DNA of 64,000 bases from an uncultured Coriobacteriia bacterium (lineage in GTDB: Bacteria; Actinomycetota; Coriobacteriia; Coriobacteriales; QAMH01): assembly GCA_948466335.1 (NCBI GenBank), contig CAOKAE010000002.1:92029-156028 (forward strand), read 5' to 3'. Positions 9,340 to 58,450 of this stretch are shown here, in pieces. Made by a program: the position numbers and the translations under genes. Within the stretch, counting starts at the first letter, position 1; every line of letters begins with the position of its first letter. The notes under the pieces are model-generated. The model saw only the letters and a program-made list of their open reading frames with translations. It made no database searches and was not told the DNA's origin.

Positions 9340-10305
9340 TTGCCCTGCCTTTATGCGATAATAGCCCCCATGCAAACGAGCAATAACATATTCCGCATAC
9401 TCATCATCGCCTGCGTCGTTCTCTTCATCGGAGCAATCGCCCAGCAGTTCTACATCTCGCATGTCGAGTCGAGCTATGCCAAATCGGGCGACGAGCTCAA
9501 GCAGGCCGAAGCCGACGTTGCCGCGGCAACCGAGCAAAACGAATCGCTCGAGCAACAGCGGACCGACACCTACATTGCCTGGCGAAACGCGCAGGGCCGC
9601 CTTTCGCTCTTTGGCGATAAGGGTGGCAAGGTGGCCTACCTCACCTTCGACGACGGCCCCTGCGACGCGCTCACGCCCAAGAACCTCGAAATCCTCAAGC
9701 AGAAGGGCGCCGTGGCGACGTGGTTCTGCCTGGCAAACGACGAGCTCTACACCTATCTCAACCTCGACCTCTGCAAGGACATCGAAAAGCAGGGTTCGGT
9801 CGTCGGCATTCATGACTGGGACCAGGACGACTCGTACAGCTACTACAAGGGCGGCGTCGACAACTACTTCACGAGCGACTTCGATAAGGCCAAGGAGAAG
9901 CTCGAAGCCGTCGTTGGCCATGAGATCAAGATCACGCGCTTTGCGGGCGGAAGCCTCACGATCGGCTACTACGACCCTGCCATTGGCAAGGCGCTACCCC
10001 GTGCCATGCTCGAGCGCGGCTACCAGTACTTCGACTGGAACGTGCTTGCCGGCGACAGCGAGCCCTCGCAGTTCGTGAACGGGTCGACCCCCAAGGACCG
10101 CATCGTGAGCAACGTGCTGAGCGAGGCGGAGTTCTTCGCGAAGACGGATTCTCCCATCTGCGTGCTCATGCACGACAACCCCGGTAAGAACACGACGACC
10201 GAGGCGCTTCCCGAAATCATCGACGGCCTGCGCGCCCTGGGATACGAGTTCAAGACGCTCGATTTCGATTCCCCTGGTTTCTATCAGGTGGTGATCACCG
10301 AATGA
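9340..10305 (+). CDS. Membrane-anchored polysaccharide deacetylase (NodB homology) with coiled-coil linker
   Basis: N-terminal TM (IFRILIIACVVLFIGAIA), then a coiled segment, then NodB motifs (VAYLTFDDGP, VLMHDNP). The start is uncertain: TTG 9340 or ATG 9370. Confidence 0.8.
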   Translation: MPCLYAIIAPMQTSNNIFRILIIACVVLFIGAIAQQFYISHVESSYAKSGDELKQAEADVAAATEQNESLEQQRTDTYIAWRNAQGRLSLFGDKGGKVAYLTFDDGPCDALTPKNLEILKQKGAVATWFCLANDELYTYLNLDLCKDIEKQGSVVGIHDWDQDDSYSYYKGGVDNYFTSDFDKAKEKLEAVVGHEIKITRFAGGSLTIGYYDPAIGKALPRAMLERGYQYFDWNVLAGDSEPSQFVNGSTPKDRIVSNVLSEAEFFAKTDSPICVLMHDNPGKNTTTEALPEIIDGLRALGYEFKTLDFDSPGFYQVVITE

Positions 10306-11150
10306 CATACGAGCGCGGACAATATGACGATGGATTCGAGCGCGAGAGGCGCCCCCGTCGCGATGTTCCCGAACGGAGCGAACGCCGTACTGGCAGCGGA
10401 TCGAATCGTTACTCCCGTTCGTCGGAACGCTACGCCCGTCACGCCTCGGCGCAACGCGACGAAAGGCGTCCCGGCAGGTCAGAAGGCCGCCCGAATCGTC
10501 AACGCCGCGACGACGCGCCCCGCGCGCGCCAACGCGACGAGCAGGGCTCTCGTCATGATTCCCCACGCCCCAGCCAACGTCCGAGTTCACGCACCCGACA
10601 GCGTGATGACATGCGCAACGAGAGGCGCGATCATGACACCATGCGCCCGCGTGACACGCGCTCGAGCCGACGGGGCTACGATGACGCACGAGATGAACAT
10701 CGCCGCGACAGGCACCCAAATCGGCAACGCGAGGGACGCGCCGAGCAGCAACGCGACTCCCGCAATGGGCAACATGCCATCGCACGGGCCGGCCAACGCA
10801 ACATCGCCCAGGCAAATCAGTACAGCAGGGACCGCTACGTAAGCCAGCCCGACCAGCAGTTTGGCGCATCCGCGAACCGGCAGGGCTACGACAAGGGCCG
10901 ACGCGTCAAGCCCGTCGACCCGCGCATGATCCTCGGGCTCGGCGTCGTTGCCGTCATCCTGCTTGCCGTCATCATCATCCGCTTCGTCGCCTTTGGTGGC
11001 ATCGCAAGCGAATACGGTGCCGCCAAGGCCGCCATCGACCAGCAACAAGCACAGCTCACCGAGCTTCAGACCTCAAACGGCGAGCTTCAGGCCGAGATGG
11101 ACTCCATGCAGGGCCTCATCGAGCGCTACAACAACTCGGGCAAGAAGTGA
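10302..11150 (+). CDS. Hypothetical bitopic protein: ~190-aa Arg/Asp/Glu/Gln-rich disordered N-terminus, one TM, short C-terminal coiled coil (DivIC/FtsB-like architecture)
   Basis: An ATGA overlap with the upstream deacetylase gene suggests translational coupling. TM segment ILGLGVVAVILLAVIIIRFVAF. C-terminal heptad-like segment AAIDQQQAQLTELQTSNGELQAEMDSMQGLI. Confidence 0.65.
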   Translation: MTYERGQYDDGFERERRPRRDVPERSERRTGSGSNRYSRSSERYARHASAQRDERRPGRSEGRPNRQRRDDAPRARQRDEQGSRHDSPRPSQRPSSRTRQRDDMRNERRDHDTMRPRDTRSSRRGYDDARDEHRRDRHPNRQREGRAEQQRDSRNGQHAIARAGQRNIAQANQYSRDRYVSQPDQQFGASANRQGYDKGRRVKPVDPRMILGLGVVAVILLAVIIIRFVAFGGIASEYGAAKAAIDQQQAQLTELQTSNGELQAEMDSMQGLIERYNNSGKK

Positions 11151-11154
11151 CTCG

Positions 11155-11312
11155 CATATGCCCGATTGCGGGCTGGCTCTCACACCCGGTTCACCACGGA
11201 CGCAATGCCGCGAAAGAACTCGCGTGCACAGATCGCACGCTCAAACACCTTTCGTCAAACCCGCATTGCGCCCATGGCAAACCTGTTCGAGATGCCCGCA
11301 ATCGGGCATATG
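11155..11312 (+). repeat. Imperfect-palindrome intergenic element, family copy 1 (MITE/ERIC-like or structured RNA)
   Basis: 19/19-bp arms CATATGCCCGATTGCGGGC / GCCCGCAATCGGGCATATG. Flanking direct repeat ACTCG at 11150-54 and 11313-17. The interior is colinear with 51666-51784 and with rc(57317-57433). Confidence 0.75.
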
Positions 11313-11369
11313 ACTCGTTGGGGAATTAATAAGAGTAACGGGATAAAACTCGCCCGGCAACTTGTTGTC

Positions 11370-11807
11370 TCATTTATGGTAGGGCTCGCCGCGCATGATC
11401 TTGAAGGCGCGGTATATCTGCTCAAGCAAGACGACGCGGGCAAGATTGTGCGGCAACGTAATCTTGCCGAATGAGAGCGTCTCGTCGGCACGGTCGTAGA
11501 CCGCCTGCGTCACGCCATCCGAGCCGCCAATGCAAAACGCGATGTCGCTCGTGCCGTGGGTCATGAGCTCGTCGAGACGCTGCGCGATCCCCTCGCTCGA
11601 TCGCTGCTCTCCCTTGATGGCGAGCAAGATAAGATGCGCGTCTCCGGCCACGCGGATGATCTCATCGCTCTCGAAATCGATGCCCTTGTCGGGAATTTCC
11701 ACGATACGCAGCTTGGTATAACCGCCAAGACGCTTGGCGTACTCCGCCGCCGCATCCTTCCAGAAGCGTTCCTTGAGCTTGCCCACGGCTATGACCGTTA
11801 TTCCCAT
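11370..11807 (-). CDS. rlmH: 23S rRNA (pseudouridine1915-N3)-methyltransferase
   Basis: 145 aa, SPOUT family. Begins MGITVIAVGKLKERFWKDAAAEYAKRL and ends LPHNLARVVLLEQIYRAFKIMRGEPYHK. Confidence 0.92.
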   Translation of the reverse strand: MGITVIAVGKLKERFWKDAAAEYAKRLGGYTKLRIVEIPDKGIDFESDEIIRVAGDAHLILLAIKGEQRSSEGIAQRLDELMTHGTSDIAFCIGGSDGVTQAVYDRADETLSFGKITLPHNLARVVLLEQIYRAFKIMRGEPYHK

Positions 11808-51527: not shown

Positions 51528-51647
51528 ATTCCCGCTGCGTTACCCCTCCAGGTATTGTCTGCAGATTCGTTGTTGCATTGTAATGCAAGCTGATAGCGAG
51601 CGCCAATCGCTTCACAACATGTGCACGGAGAGTTAAGAGGGCGTTCA

Positions 51648-51802
51648 GATGAGCGAATTGCAGACTTGCTCTTGCACCCGAGTTACGCTTCGCTCGATGC
51701 CGCTGCGGAACTCGCGCGCAAAAAACGCGCGCTCAGACAGTCCTCGCAAGGTCGCATCGAGCTCAGCGCAACTCTGCGCGAGATGTCTGCAATTTGCTCA
51801 TC
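51648..51802 (+). repeat. Imperfect-palindrome intergenic element, family copy 3
   Basis: Arms GATGAGCGAATTGCAGAC / GTCTGCAATTTGCTCATC (17 Watson-Crick pairs plus 1 G-T). The interior is colinear with copy 1 (TTGCTCTTGCACCCG, GATGCCGC, GGAACTCGCG, GCTCAGACA, CGAGAT). It begins 11 nt after the rsmA stop. Confidence 0.7.
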
Positions 51803-51812
51803 CTCCCTTCTG

Positions 51813-52697
51813 TTAATGAAGATCTAGAAGTGCGCGAGCCATTTGGAGGTAGGTTTCGGGTGCGAGGGTTTCGCCGCGCGTGGTGGGGGCGATGTCGCAG
51901 GCGGCGAGCAGCTGATCGACGATATCCTTGGGATATTTGCTGCTCATGGAGTTGCGAATGGTCTTGCGTCGCTGGGCGAAGGCCGCGTCGGCCAGCTTGC
52001 AGGCGACCTCGACGAGCTCGGGGTCGAGCGCGTCGGCGTTGCGCTCGATGCGGATGACGGCGCTCTCCACGTGAGGCGCGGGCATGAAGCAGCCCGGCGG
52101 CACCTGGAAGCGATCGACCACGTGGGCGTACAGGCGCAGCTTGACCGTGTATGCGCCGTAGTTCTTCGTGCCCACCTGGGCGTCCATGCGATCGGCAACC
52201 TCGCTTTGCACCATGACCGTCATGGCATCGAGAAACTCGAAGCGCGTCAGCCAGTCGAGCACGACCGTCGCGGCGATGCCATAGGGTAGGTTCGAGACGA
52301 GTTGACGGGGCATCGGCGCATCGAGCGTGGCAGCGGCCTGCTCGACCTCGTCACGCGTCAGCTTGAGGGCGTCCTTCTGGATGAGGGCGAAACGATGCGA
52401 GAGGTCCATGGTCGTCTGCGCGAGCACGTCGACGAGATCGGCGTCACGCTCGATGGCGATGACCTTGGCACGTTCGAGCAACGCGATGGTGAGCGTGCCG
52501 ATGCCCGGCCCGATCTCGAACAGGCAGGGCAGCGCCCCGTCCGGTTGCGGGTCATCTAGCTGCGCGAGGCGCAGGATGTTGCCAATGACGTTATCGTCCA
52601 CGAGAAAGTTCTGGCCCAGGGCGTGCTTGGCGCTCAGGCCGAACTCCTGCAAGACGCCCCTGGTCGCACGGGGATTTGCCAGCGCGGAATACGCCAT
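51813..52697 (-). CDS. rsmA: 16S rRNA (adenine1518/1519-N6)-dimethyltransferase
   Basis: LGQNFLVDDNVI and EIGPGIGTLT. Starts at ATG 52697, or at GTG 52703 overlapping the upstream stop. Confidence 0.93.
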   Translation of the reverse strand: MAYSALANPRATRGVLQEFGLSAKHALGQNFLVDDNVIGNILRLAQLDDPQPDGALPCLFEIGPGIGTLTIALLERAKVIAIERDADLVDVLAQTTMDLSHRFALIQKDALKLTRDEVEQAAATLDAPMPRQLVSNLPYGIAATVVLDWLTRFEFLDAMTVMVQSEVADRMDAQVGTKNYGAYTVKLRLYAHVVDRFQVPPGCFMPAPHVESAVIRIERNADALDPELVEVACKLADAAFAQRRKTIRNSMSSKYPKDIVDQLLAACDIAPTTRGETLAPETYLQMARALLDLH

Positions 52698-52699
52698 CG

Positions 52700-53731
52700 T
52701 CACGCCCGCCCGATGCTCGCCATAACCTGGCCGGCCAAGGTGATGGCCCGGCTCAGGTCAAACTGGTCGCCGATCATGCGCGTGATGCGGCTGGAATCGA
52801 TGCGCAGGTTCGCGCAGTTGAGCGCAGAGGTGCAGATGGTCTCGAGCGGCTCCGTGCCAAACGGGTCTCCCCCATCGCCGATGACGACGAGATGCGCCGG
52901 GCGCTTGCGGGGGACCCACTCCCCGAGCACGTACTTGCGCGCCCAGTACATCTGGCAGCGGTCGAGCGCGGCCTTGAGCCAGCCGGAAGGGCCGGCAAAG
53001 TAGACGGGCGCGATCACGACGAGCGCCGCGCAGGATTCCATGTGGCGGGAAAGCACGTTCCAGGCATCGCCCTTGATGCAGCACGTGCCCGTCACCCGGC
53101 AGGCATCACAGCCCGTGCAGGCCGCAACCGGATACTTGGCAATCTCGAAGAGCGTGACGGCCGCACCTGACAGGCGCAGGTACTCGGAGAGCTTGCGCCC
53201 GAAGAGGGCTGATTTGCCGTCCGTATGCGGGGAGCCGACGAGAATGAGGACCTCGGGTGGTTTGGGAGGCTCATCGGAAGCAGGCTCTTCTTCGGGAAGC
53301 TCCTCTTCCTCCTCGACGGTCACGGCATCGCCCTGGTCAACGTGGAAGTCCTCGGTGGAGCTGGGGGCGGGCTCGTTCCTGGGCTCGAAGACGGGTTCAG
53401 CGAGCGTGTCCCCAAGGGGCCTCGCGCTCACCTGCCGCAGGAAATCCTGGGGGCTCTCCCCGAAAAGCTCCGCGAAGCTATCCTCGTCCAAGACGATGTC
53501 ATCGGAACCCGCGTCTGAATCGTCGACGTTTCCGACACCCGTGACGTCGCCTGCCAGCGAGACCGATATGCCGCCGTCGATGCTGTAGGTGGGCTGGGAC
53601 CGGCCCTCTTGCACCGCGTCGGGAGCCTGCTCCTCCTGCGCGGGGACTTCCGGCTCCTCTTGCTTGGGGTTATTCAGCTTCTCGAAGTCCTTCTCGGAGG
53701 GAAGCTTCTGCCTCCTCGATTTCTTCGCCAT
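52700..53731 (-). CDS. Iron-sulfur flavoprotein-like (flavodoxin fold) with ~160-aa acidic disordered N-terminal extension
   Basis: The C-terminal half has VLILVGSPHTDGKS, the compact Cys motif CTGCDACRVTGTCC (CX2CX2CX5C), and VIAPVYFAGPSG. SD GAGGAG lies 7 nt before ATG 53731. There is no internal Met in the extension. Confidence 0.75.
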   Translation of the reverse strand: MAKKSRRQKLPSEKDFEKLNNPKQEEPEVPAQEEQAPDAVQEGRSQPTYSIDGGISVSLAGDVTGVGNVDDSDAGSDDIVLDEDSFAELFGESPQDFLRQVSARPLGDTLAEPVFEPRNEPAPSSTEDFHVDQGDAVTVEEEEELPEEEPASDEPPKPPEVLILVGSPHTDGKSALFGRKLSEYLRLSGAAVTLFEIAKYPVAACTGCDACRVTGTCCIKGDAWNVLSRHMESCAALVVIAPVYFAGPSGWLKAALDRCQMYWARKYVLGEWVPRKRPAHLVVIGDGGDPFGTEPLETICTSALNCANLRIDSSRITRMIGDQFDLSRAITLAGQVMASIGRA

Positions 53732-56404: not shown

Positions 56405-57241
56405 CTACATGCCAAGGATGAGGTCGTAAAGCCTGTTCTTCGGGAGGCCGAGTTCGCGGGAGAGCTTCTTGGCAAGCGCCGACTTGGACGCGCCGGCGGC
56501 AAGCTCGGCTTGGATGCGCTCGTGCAAGGCCGGGTCATCGAGACTTGCGGCTTGCTGCGCACGAGCATCCGGCAGAGCGATGACGAGCACGATCTCGCCC
56601 TTAATCGCATCACGCGCAGCGAGGTTATCCGCAAGCTCGTTGGCGGGCAGACGCAGTACCTCTTCGTGCAGCTTCGTGAGCTCGCGACACAGCGCGACTG
56701 GTCGCTCGCCATAGGCCTGCGCGATGCTCTCGACCGCAGCAACGACGCGATGCGGTGACTCGTAGAAGATGAGCGCAGCATCGAGCGCGGCCAGCGATTC
56801 CAAAAGCTTGATGCGCTCGACCTCCTTGCGCGGCAAGAAGCCGCCGAAGTAGAAGGCGTTATGCTTAAAGCCGGAAGTAACGAGCGCAGTGGTCACGGCG
56901 CAGGGGCCGGGCAGCACGTTGACAGTCACACCGGCATCGCGGGCCGCATCGACAAGCACGATACCGGGATCGCTGATGCCGGGCATGCCGGCATCGGAGC
57001 AGAAGGCGATGGACTTGCCATCGCGCATGCGAGCAACAAGAGCGGCGCTCTTGGATGCAATGACGTTCTCGTCACAACGCTCGAGACGGGCCTGGATGCC
57101 GAAGTGCGCGAGCAGCTTGCCGGTGACACGCGTGTCCTCGGCGCAAACGACGTCGGCCTGCTCGAGCGCGTCGAGCGCACGGGCGGTCATGTCGCCGAGA
57201 TTACCGATGGGCGTCGGCACTATGGTCAGCTTGCCAGTCAT
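56405..57241 (-). CDS. rsmI: 16S rRNA (cytidine1402-2'-O)-methyltransferase
   Basis: MTGKLTIVPTPIGNLGDMTARALDAL..AEDTR. Starts at ATG 57241; GTG 57250 is an alternative. Confidence 0.92.
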   Translation of the reverse strand: MTGKLTIVPTPIGNLGDMTARALDALEQADVVCAEDTRVTGKLLAHFGIQARLERCDENVIASKSAALVARMRDGKSIAFCSDAGMPGISDPGIVLVDAARDAGVTVNVLPGPCAVTTALVTSGFKHNAFYFGGFLPRKEVERIKLLESLAALDAALIFYESPHRVVAAVESIAQAYGERPVALCRELTKLHEEVLRLPANELADNLAARDAIKGEIVLVIALPDARAQQAASLDDPALHERIQAELAAGASKSALAKKLSRELGLPKNRLYDLILGM

Positions 57242-57296
57242 TGCATCCACCCTACCGGAGCAAATGTGAAGTCACTTCATTCCCGTTCACCTGCTA

Positions 57297-57453
57297 TGCA
57301 ATAAGCAGTTTTGGGCATCTTGAGCAGGCTCGTCATTTTCGCAATACGGGTTTGCGAAAGGTGTCTGAGCGAGCCAAAGGCGAGCGAGTTCTTTCGCGGT
57401 ATTGAGAAAATGGCGAGCCGGGTGCGAAAGCCAGCCCGAAAATGCTTATTGCA
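57297..57453 (-). repeat. Imperfect-palindrome intergenic element, family copy 2
   Basis: Arms 57297-57316 / 57434-57453 pair at 18/20 positions (TGCAATAAGCAGTTTTGGGC / GCCCGAAAATGCTTATTGCA). The reverse-complemented interior is colinear with copy 1 (TGGCTTTCGCACCCGG, CCGCGAAAGAACTCGC, ACACCTTTCGCAAACCCG.ATTGCG, CAAGAT). The right arm contains the gap TAA stop. Confidence 0.75.
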
Positions 57454-58450
57454 TCAAAAACTTCGCCAGGTCGATGCAACGAGCGGAGTAGCCCATCTCG
57501 TTGTCGTACCAGGAGATGCACTTCACGAAGTTGCCCTCGCCGTCGAGCACCTTGGTGAGCTTGCTGTCGAAGATCGAGGAATGCGTGTCGCCGATGACAT
57601 CGCAGCTCACGATGGGGTCGACGCAGTACTCGAGGATGCCCTTCATCGGGCCCTCGGCGGCGGCCTTCATAGCGGCGTTGATCTCGTCGGCAGTGACGTT
57701 CTTCTCGAGCTCGACCGTGAGGTCGACCATCGAGCCCGTCGGCGTGGGAACGCGGGTCGCGAAGCCGTCAAGCTTGCCGTTGAGCTCGGGGAGCACGAGG
57801 CCGACGGCCTTGGCCGCGCCCGTGGAGGTGGGAATCATGGAAAGGGCCGCGGCACGCGAGCGACGGAAGTCCTTGTGGTGCACGTCGAGGATCTTCTGGT
57901 CGTTGGTGTAGGCATGGATGGTGTTCATGAGGCCGCGCTTGATGCCGAAGTTGTCGTTGAGGACCTTGGCGAACGGCGCGAGGCAGTTGGTCGTGCACGA
58001 GGCGTTGGAGACGATGTTCATCGTGGCCGGGTCGTAGATATCCTGGTTGACGCCCATGACGATAGTGGCGTCCACGTCGGTGCCCGGAGCGGAGATGACG
58101 ACCTTCTTGGCGCCGTTGTCGAGATGCACCTGGCAGGCCTCGCCGGTCTTGAGGCGACCCGTGGACTCGATGACGACCTCCGCGCCGACGGAAGCCCAGT
58201 CGAGCTCCTTGGGCTCGCGCGTCTGGAACGCCTTGACCTCGTGGCCCTCGACGACGAGCGCGCCTTCCTTGGCGTAGCACTCCTCGAAGACACGGCCCTG
58301 GCTGGAATCGTACTTGGTAAGGTACGCCGCGCACTCGAGATCACTCGGATTGTTGATGGCGACGACCTCTACATCGGGATCGAGCTCTGCGAGACGAAAG
58401 ACCAGACGGCCGATGCGACCAAAACCATTGATGCCGATTTTGAGAGACAT
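57446..58450 (-). CDS. gap: Type I glyceraldehyde-3-phosphate dehydrogenase
   Basis: Starts at ATG 58450 (MSLKIGINGFGRIGR). Active-site SNASCTTNCLAP. Confidence 0.97.
   Translation of the reverse strand: MSLKIGINGFGRIGRLVFRLAELDPDVEVVAINNPSDLECAAYLTKYDSSQGRVFEECYAKEGALVVEGHEVKAFQTREPKELDWASVGAEVVIESTGRLKTGEACQVHLDNGAKKVVISAPGTDVDATIVMGVNQDIYDPATMNIVSNASCTTNCLAPFAKVLNDNFGIKRGLMNTIHAYTNDQKILDVHHKDFRRSRAAALSMIPTSTGAAKAVGLVLPELNGKLDGFATRVPTPTGSMVDLTVELEKNVTADEINAAMKAAAEGPMKGILEYCVDPIVSCDVIGDTHSSIFDSKLTKVLDGEGNFVKCISWYDNEMGYSARCIDLAKFLMQ

Follow-up and report, generated by a model that had tools for sequence, protein, structure and literature searches.

A 64,000-nucleotide stretch of contig CAOKAE010000002.1 from an uncultured Coriobacteriia bacterium (hereafter, the window) carries three copies of a palindromic element, the first of which (copy 1) occupies positions 11148-11317. 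These elements belong to a real repeat family and are not chance palindromes. The element is about 165 nt long, and one of its two strands folds into a single long rod-shaped hairpin, which is maintained in place by purifying selection in a strand-specific manner. The family, which resides in uncultured and poorly studied gut Coriobacteriales, is previously undescribed and is a member of no named family; it is a dispersed intergenic palindromic element, or a structured 3′-region RNA. We favor the explanation, at a probability of roughly one half, that it is a new element of the ERIC or Correia kind, with ends defined by structure, which is selected as RNA and probably serves as a hairpin at 3′ ends.

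The sequence-only reading of this DNA had noted that positions 11155-11173 (CATATGCCCGATTGCGGGC) are the exact reverse complement of positions 11294-11312, and that the interior is itself palindromic. Both observations hold. The arms are complementary at 19 of 19 positions and lie 120 nt apart, and the interior is paired throughout rather than forming a loop, with the 170 nt making up one continuous rod. The calculated folding energy is -81.4 kcal/mol for the plus strand and -101 kcal/mol for the minus strand (z about -8 to -9), a stability reached by none of 200 shuffles. The folded, or “sense”, strand of copy 1 is the minus strand, which is the strand of rlmH. Copy 1 lies in the 3′ untranslated space of rlmH in the sense orientation, and its rod is the sole strong structure between two convergent genes. 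The other gene, the coding sequence 10302..11150, ends with a TGA at 11148-11150, as had been read. The parts of copy 1 are as follows.

11148..11317, minus strand: copy 1, scoring 172 bits with covariance model R1 and 154 bits with model R2.
11294..11312, minus strand: 5′ arm of the outer stem in the sense orientation, the 19/19 complement of 11155-11173.
11155..11173, minus strand: 3′ arm of the outer stem, the inverted-repeat partner in helix 1.
11148..11154, plus strand: left TGACTCG heptamer, which holds the TGA stop of 10302..11150.
11311..11317, plus strand: right TGACTCG heptamer, the first two bases of which are part of the stem.
11284..11293, minus strand: 5′ internal-loop block AUCUCGAACA (family consensus AU-CUC-GA-GCA), near-invariant in the 37-sequence alignment.
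11174..11187, minus strand: 3′ block GGG-UGU-GA-GAG-CCA, comprising the GGG bulge and the partner of the tandem G-A loop, with invariant GGGUG..A..G columns.
11263..11283, minus strand: 5′ strand of helix 4, the long variable helix, from its inverted-repeat pairing, with double changes at 19 of 21 pairs family-wide.
11188..11208, minus strand: 3′ strand of helix 4, from its inverted-repeat pairing and covariation.
11209..11254, minus strand: apical module, with a short helix, a UGUUU bulge, a tandem G-A and a GC-rich hairpin (11222-11240).

In the outer-stem columns (helix 1), the sequence is free across the family, yet 93% of the cells are paired, while in the apical module of copy 1 the UGUYUGAGCG and CGAGUUC segments are invariant columns. 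The open reading frames (ORFs) crossing the element had been judged not to be conserved in frame, and indeed none is common to the copies: most members lack the start codons that copies 1 and 2 contain, and the lengths of the alignment indels between copies are not multiples of three.

Two further copies had been proposed in the window. Both exist, and both are longer than claimed.

51645..51808, minus strand: copy 2 (158 bits), starting 4-6 nt past the rsmA/ksgA stop, in the sense orientation and upstream of the glycosyltransferase promoter.
57292..57456, plus strand: copy 3 (144-167 bits), between gap and rsmI and antisense to both.

Each of the three copies has its own outer inverted repeat, and the sequences of these repeats are unrelated. 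The arms of copy 3 span 57296-57316 (5′) and 57434-57454 (3′), and the TAA stop of gap (57446-57448) lies inside the 3′ arm. Copy 2 lies between the rsmA stop and a promoter-like site of the next gene, encoding a glycosyltransferase (51606-51577). The pattern GAACTCGC..GCTCARACA has exactly three matches in the window, where none is expected. The lengths of these matches are 32, 32 and 30 nt, and it is accordingly copy 3, not copy 2 as had been stated, that is shorter by 2 nt between the two blocks. A covariance model built from the three copies finds only these three in the window, even with the filters off and with a better model. From the three copies alone, 60 consensus pairs can be derived, and 22 of these show compensatory changes.

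A wider search uncovered many further copies. A scan of metagenome contigs with a strict pattern requiring the intact apical motif detected 76 loci; among these, about 34 are full-length members, which fall into roughly 18 distinct loci recognized by the covariance model. The covariation statistics were calculated on 30 distinct sequences, and the column conservation on an alignment of 37 sequences. Among the 30 sequences, 88.7% of the cells form standard pairs, as compared to 25-49% in registers where the 3′ partners have been shifted by 1-3 columns. Two-sided (double) changes occur at 44 of the 60 pairs, and none of five pairing measures was reached in any of 500 shuffles. The covariation is therefore strong and the score exceeds that of shuffles. 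The sequence-only reading had named the findings that would speak against a repeat family (no additional copies, no insertion polymorphism, and a score no better than that of shuffles); each was checked, and none was encountered. A looser scan of genome contigs (GAACTCGC N10-24 GCTCARA) returned 120 loci, mostly by chance and with no true Coriobacteriales copy among them, and a search of viral contigs and plasmids gave no family match. The earlier statement that the family was not recognized agrees with Rfam 15, in which the whole window at the gathering threshold matches only a tRNA, and positions 11100-11370 match nothing even at E<=10. Literature searches by motif sequence and for Coriobacteriia repeats retrieved nothing relevant.

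The invariant bases of the family are confined to the internal loops and bulges, and the stems vary freely. First, the outer stem of 13-21 bp is unconstrained in sequence and is followed by a GGC/GCC clamp; its columns 10-22 / 158-170 contain no conserved residue, and all 13 pairs covary. Second, the 5′ strand GGC-AU-CUC-GA-GCA faces the 3′ strand GGG-UGC-GA-GAG-CAA-GCC in an invariant loop composed of a tandem G-A and a GGG bulge. Third, the middle helix of about 21 bp is essentially without conserved sequence. Finally, the invariant apical module, UGUYUGAGCG-hairpin-CGCGAGUUC followed by GCGGCAU, forms a second tandem G-A beside the 5-nt UGUYU bulge. One short helix occurs in two subtypes, both of which can pair: CGAAAGG...UUCUUUCG in copies 1 and 3, and CGAGGAC...UUCCGCAG in copy 2 and most others. 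The conservation ends precisely at the base of the stem. The inverted arms thus do not behave as transposon-type terminal repeats, as the outer stem lacks conserved sequence while the internal loops are invariant. Since the conserved bases all lie in loops, they point to a specific partner molecule. One member, at L210 4092-4255, joins a 5′ half from the L168 group to a 3′ half from the L183 group, leaving its arms unpaired; this joining reflects either a chimeric assembly at the core that the groups share or recombination.

The family has a defined polarity, with the sense orientation being minus for copies 1 and 2 and plus for copy 3. In all three window copies, the sense strand folds better by 11-20 kcal/mol, and the covariance scores are about 150 bits for the sense strand versus about 30 bits for the reverse strand (28-36 bits for copy 1). 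At the variable pairs, G-U/U-G cells number 91 and A-C/C-A cells 20, and between nearest neighbors with at least 91% identity, 13 one-sided changes are of the G-U type and 2 of the A-C type. If the palindrome mattered solely as double-stranded DNA, or to the same extent on either strand, this bias would be absent. The G-U excess therefore indicates that selection acts on one strand, with a defined polarity. This strand is most simply read as RNA, and single-stranded DNA is a possible reading as well.

The strongest single result comes from an orthologous copy. The nearest named RlmH homologs are those of Eggerthellaceae/Adlercreutzia, with about 65% identity. In the relative L136 (GCA_948811325.1), the RlmH of which is 96% identical, the element is found at the same place, with outer arms that are still recognizably the same. 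The two copies are about 78% identical, as compared to 77% identity at the four-fold degenerate sites of rlmH, with the neutral sites having accumulated about 0.25 substitutions each. Among the 60 pairs, 16 have changed through 24 substitutions at paired positions: eight by double substitution, eight via G-U, and none to a broken pair. The fold energies of the two copies are -99.4 and -98.3 kcal/mol. The copy thus drifts at the neutral rate in both lineages, along pair-preserving paths only.

Copies are present or absent at orthologous sites among relatives, in agreement with the insertion polymorphism that had been anticipated. Copy 1 is absent in L130 (RlmH 78%), which has the same convergent gene pair with the stops 15 nt apart. 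An exact empty site for copy 1 was sought in the relatives and none was found; the 92% relatives carry an island there. This island, seen in L127 (10480-13293), L139, L140 and L221-L225 (RlmH 87-92%), comprises a TetR-like gene and two GmrSD-type (DUF262-family) genes, lies between rlmH and the deacetylase/DivIC-like genes, and is defense-like.

Copies 2 and 3 are both absent from the 96% relative (L217/L218) that shares copy 1. Its rsmA-glycosyltransferase spacer measures 105 nt versus 285 nt in the window, and its gap-rsmI spacer 67 nt versus 195 nt. Copy 3 is missing in all three relatives examined, and is therefore best read as a recent gain. The C-terminus encoded by gap is ..FLMQ* with copy 3 and ..FLVA* in the three relatives, with the new stop falling within the arm of the hairpin; the insertion appears to have remodeled the end of the essential gene gap and supplied its stop codon. 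The last two gap codons (window 57446-57460, as compared to L217 5380-5400) are altered in the genome with copy 3 alone. Copy 2, in contrast to copy 3, is an old copy. In the 86% relative L220 (10882-11200), a remnant has preserved the 3′ half together with the two outer arms and the right junction, and in the 88% relative both junctions are kept around a short filler (L219/L220 hold these remnants). The 5′ half of the L220 remnant is replaced by a second, unrelated hairpin (GCGCACCGGCAAGCTGC...GCAGCTTGCCGGTGTGAGC). Because other relatives hold remnants of copy 2, the clean empty site in the closest relative probably arose by deletion. The copy number is low, with three in the 64-kb window and one in about 130 kb of the relatives.

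How are the copies placed with respect to genes? The sequence-only reading had emphasized that copy 1 sits exactly on a stop codon. This is true, and it is a trait of the family rather than a peculiarity of copy 1: at about 10 of the 17 distinct loci, the distance between the element and the stop codon of a real gene is 0-22 nt, with an overlap in several cases. In four independent cases the stop is followed by CT, namely in copy 1 (TGACTCG), at a CorA locus in two species (TGACTCT and TGACTTC), and in the empty sites of copy 2 (TAACTTC) and copy 3 (TAACTGC). This exceeds the 1/16 expected per site; the pattern was noticed post hoc, and we regard it as a lead.

The heptamers around copy 1 had been interpreted as a target-site duplication. 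TGACTCG indeed occurs at 11148-11154, where it includes the TGA stop, and at 11311-11317 (ACTCG from 11150 and 11313, respectively), and this 7-nt repeat is real. The interpretation does not extend to the family, most copies of which have no flanking repeats. The CGAGTCA direct repeat of copy 1 is the longest in the family, and the repeat length is not fixed: the repeats of copies 1 and 2 measure 7 and 5 nt, respectively, and that of copy 3 is imperfect and 5-6 nt long. Repeats of at least 5 nt flank 6 of 16 independent loci, as compared to about 20% of mismatched-flank controls, and repeats of at least 7 nt occur in about 1% of the mismatched-flank control pairs. The 7-nt repeat is thus unusual, and is not decisive alone; the duplications are suggestive at copies 1 and 3, and are neither general nor of fixed length. 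In the orthologous L136 copy, the right heptamer reads ACTTG, matching at 6 of 7 positions. The repeat at copy 2 is as follows.

51632..51636, minus strand: distal TTAAC direct repeat, 10 nt outside the copy 2 hairpin.
51812..51816, minus strand: proximal TTAAC direct repeat, which includes the rsmA TAA stop.

The empty site of copy 2 in L217 contains a single TTAAC, and the pair at copy 2 may be a microhomology used by the deletion in that relative, which would also explain why TTAAC lies 8-10 nt outside the hairpin. We also considered a general conserved tail past the hairpin, on account of the 12-nt GAGTCACTTCTT common to the flanks of copy 1 and L167, and rejected it as a general feature; the AAGAAG part comes from the host gene. 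The L127 ortholog of the 10302..11150 product ends with ...SGKK* at a TAG stop, indicating that the KK codons of 10302..11150 are of host-gene origin.

The surroundings of copy 1 bear on what the element may do at gene ends.

11318..11369, minus strand: spacer between the rlmH stop and the element, which keeps AUGAGACAACAAGUUGCC and has lost the 3′ half.
11370..11807, minus strand: rlmH, encoding the 23S rRNA pseudouridine-1915 methyltransferase (ORF, PF02590 and names in the source).
10302..11150, plus strand: convergent gene for an arginine-rich membrane/coiled-coil protein with a DivIC-like C-terminus, the stop codon of which abuts copy 1.

In the 92% relatives lacking the element, a hairpin directly follows rlmH (-14.7 kcal/mol, z -2.8), whereas the window spacer (11318-11369) contains only the 5′ half of that hairpin and has no significant fold (z +0.24). 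The spacer looks like a decayed remnant of the rlmH terminator hairpin. Similarly, in relatives without the element, gap is followed by classical terminators with U-tracts (-28.4 and -33.8 kcal/mol, z -4.2 and -7.7), while the remaining gap spacer in the window has no significant fold (z -0.2). Positions just past stop codons recur in the family, and at these two loci the canonical hairpins of the element-free relatives are lost in the window; the element appears to have displaced the ordinary terminators. The apical hairpin with its GAGUUCUUUC tail is flagged as terminator-like in copy 1 only, and the U-rich tail is limited to copy-1-type members. A riboswitch or leader was ruled out, because the element lies downstream of genes, the neighbors are diverse and the orientation is mixed. 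Over the approximately 18 loci, these neighbors include CorA, an MFS transporter, aconitase, NadE, Vsr, L21, prfA/prmC, a U32 peptidase, an FAD protein and a molybdopterin enzyme.

We propose the following mechanism. First, the element would spread by rare insertion, with ends defined by structure and no need of a conserved terminal sequence, and would land in, or survive at, the space directly past stop codons. Second, it would be co-transcribed with the 3′ ends of the neighboring genes. Finally, the rod would take over as the hairpin of the transcript end, acting as a terminator, a barrier to 3′-exonucleases, or a processing site, and the invariant loops could provide a handle for a protein factor.

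Several observations weigh against this proposal. The orientation relative to the neighboring genes is mixed, with 7 copies in sense, 5 in antisense and 2 between convergent genes. A role only in the host mRNA therefore leaves the selection on a single strand unexplained; a hairpin in mRNA would work in either orientation, and yet one strand is protected, which is the main tension. A single-stranded intermediate of transposition accounts better for a strand bias that is independent of host transcription. No U-tract follows the whole rod in the flanks of the family members and the window copies, and no promoter-like site was found near copy 3, which is antisense to both neighbors. The decay of old terminators is seen at two loci, and the decay of copy 2 in L220 implies that the element is dispensable there. 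In addition, the search pattern demanded an intact apical motif, and the family set is biased toward intact copies; the orthologous pair of copy 1 and L136 is free of this bias, because it was reached via rlmH and not via the motif. At one locus between a tRNA gene and an MFS gene, L148 (5769-5934) and L151 (14038-14203) have colinear flanks with 82% identity over 1.3 kb and an element that is inverted and 91% identical, which shows that the orientation can flip in place or that the site is reused.

The most serious competitor, although we consider it rather unlikely, is a purely selfish non-autonomous mobile element, similar to a miniature inverted-repeat transposable element (MITE) or a REPIN. 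Such an element would move as a single strand, via single-stranded DNA (IS200/IS605-type or RAYT enzymes) or an RNA intermediate, and its fold would serve only the mobilizing enzyme. The presence or absence of copies between close relatives agrees with this explanation, as do the direct repeats that flank copies 1 and 2 (7 and 5 nt, respectively) and a small number of further copies, the mixed orientation with respect to genes, the inverted element within the colinear L148/L151 flanks, and the occurrence of the apical module in unrelated, probably proteobacterial, contigs. However, the termini lack any sequence conservation, and the flanking repeats are missing from most copies and variable in length. 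Moreover, a resident copy of a selfish element should decay, whereas copy 1 and its L136 ortholog retain every pair. The locus gene tables contain no transposase, reverse transcriptase or RAYT gene, and the copy number is low for such an element.

An unlikely, bolder variant is that the family represents a new class of non-autonomous mobile element, with structure-defined ends and a kink-turn-like apical module, shared across phyla, that would be read by the mobilizing enzyme; the element would insert at stop codons (T-R-A-C-T) and then be recruited by the host as a terminator hairpin. In a kink-turn, a canonical stem is followed by a 3-nt bulge, tandem sheared G-A pairs and a non-canonical stem. 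The apical module places an invariant GA opposite GA by a hairpin, and a GGAC/GUUC stem is possible in most members, while its bulge has 5 nt (UGUYU) instead of 3. The pattern scans also caught Thioalkalivibrio, Salinisphaera, marine-sediment and peat contigs, and one contig of 78% G+C, where the apical block caps long hairpins that are otherwise unrelated, often as inverted pairs in composite palindromes of about 600 bp or in tandem 560-bp units. These matches hint at a cross-phylum apical module, with the qualification that the search pattern selected for the block, although not for the enclosed hairpin or the surrounding helices.

It is improbable that the copies are independently transcribed genes for small RNAs, acting in trans or sequestering a protein in the manner of 6S or Y RNAs, with only an incidental position at gene ends. 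Although the structural selection is strand-specific whatever the orientation of the neighbors, the rod of about 165 nt has a fitting shape, and the invariant loops would suit protein binding, the flanks of about 24 members share no promoter or U-tract/terminator motif, no promoter-like site was found near copy 1 or copy 3, and the conservation stops at the stem base. Several copies overlap or abut stop codons and therefore leave no room for a promoter. Cis-regulation of the adjacent genes, notably those of the rRNA methyltransferases, is very improbable: such genes (rlmH, rsmA and rsmI) adjoin all three window copies, and a class I methyltransferase, prmC and a U32-family gene adjoin other members, but the neighbors are otherwise diverse, the element is located downstream and not upstream, with either orientation occurring, and relatives keep the same genes without it. 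Finally, a passive DNA-level palindrome, kept without a selected function through gene conversion between the arms or through hairpin-templated repair, is likewise very improbable, because conversion would yield compensated changes without selection but would also erase the asymmetric internal loops, which are invariant, and gives no reason for the preference of G-U over A-C, 91:20, on one strand.

In its behavior, as compared by description, the element comes closest to ERIC/IRU, Correia and REP/REPIN elements. The sequence-only reading had likened the element to an ERIC/MITE-like repeat or a structured RNA, and each label is partly right: the element is short (<300 bp), non-coding and dispersed, with 3 copies in 64 kb and about 18 metagenome loci, although its arms are not terminal repeats of the transposon type. 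ERIC/IRU elements are imperfect palindromes of about 127 bp in Enterobacteria and Vibrio. Like the present family, they are non-coding, intergenic, 100-200 bp in length, placed in either orientation close to the ends of genes in transcribed regions, and present or absent at orthologous sites, and they form long RNA hairpins in which G-U pairs make the two orientations differ in stability. ERIC copies, however, share a consensus along the whole element including the termini, whereas only the loops are invariant here, and no sequence similarity was detected in this descriptive comparison. The Correia elements (NEMIS/CREE) of Neisseria are likewise miniature palindromic insertions of about 100-160 bp by genes, polymorphic between strains, and are transcribed into hairpins that affect mRNA processing and termination. 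They differ in that their 26-bp terminal inverted repeats are conserved, their duplication is a fixed TA, and their copies number in the hundreds, as compared to the variable termini, inconsistent flanking repeats and low copy number of this family.

REP/REPIN sequences, for which roles in mRNA 3′-end stability have been proposed, resemble the family as long-lived, vertically inherited intergenic palindromes with preserved hairpins, located after stop codons and between convergent genes. In contrast to the single continuous 165-nt rod with variable stems and conserved asymmetric loops, REPs are conserved palindromes of only 20-40 nt, which mostly occur as inverted pairs and are associated with a RAYT gene; no RAYT (Y1 transposase, PF01797) was found in the approximately 20-kb pieces of related genomes that were read. 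The attC sites of integrons also conserve structure rather than sequence, fold on one strand, and lie right after or overlapping the upstream stop. Their R′′/R′ core sites (RYYYAAC / GTTRRRY) are at the ends, in cassette arrays accompanied by an integrase. We rejected attC, as the ends of the family are variable (CATATG.., GATGAGC.., ATGCAAT..) without GTTRRRY and it is the center that is conserved, and as the neighbors are housekeeping genes (rlmH, rsmA, gap, rsmI) without cassette context. A likeness of the apical block to domain 5 of group II introns and to the hammerhead was also rejected, because the helix lengths and core bases misfit and Rfam gave no match.

REP, ERIC and Correia repeats have been known for decades, and it is still debated whether they represent junk or functional RNA. 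The present family provides an unusually clean test of this question, as its stems drift neutrally while the pairs are kept and one strand is protected. Structure-only conservation, strand-specific selection and the apparent takeover of terminators set it beyond an ordinary MITE. If the gene-end role or the stop-codon targeting is true, then the family would show a mobile hairpin becoming normal gene architecture, and would also give biochemists a new structured RNA motif to examine.

Each of the window copies has an rRNA methyltransferase gene as a neighbor (rlmH, 11370-11807; rsmA/ksgA, 51813-52703; rsmI, 56405-57250), and other members adjoin genes for a class I methyltransferase, PrmC and a U32-family protein of the RNA hydroxylation type. 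This adjacency may reflect chance or a preference for translation-related operons. In the product of 10302-11150, the N-terminal half is extremely arginine-rich and is followed by a membrane span and a DivIC-like coiled coil; for its orthologs in relatives, gene callers give two ORFs.

The composites of about 600 bp are found in L013 (4780-5410; Thioalkalivibrio sp. ALJ16), L060 (900-2260; Salinisphaera sp.), and L141 and L197 (Ga0316201 contigs). Each contains two inverted UGUCUGAGCG-hairpin-CGAGUUC blocks at hairpin tips, together with terminator-like hairpins and ends reading “GGGUGCCCUUUCUUUUGG..”, and those of Salinisphaera form tandem units of about 560 bp. The 12 related (proteobacterial-type) loci match only tRNAs in Rfam, and the composites have no plasmid match. 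In the window itself, an AT-richer intergenic stretch at 624-698 holds two tandem perfect palindromes of about 29 bp (AATTTCGTGTACACsGTGTACACGAAATT), 6 nt apart. The covariance model matches them only as weak generic hairpins, and they look like paired operator sites.

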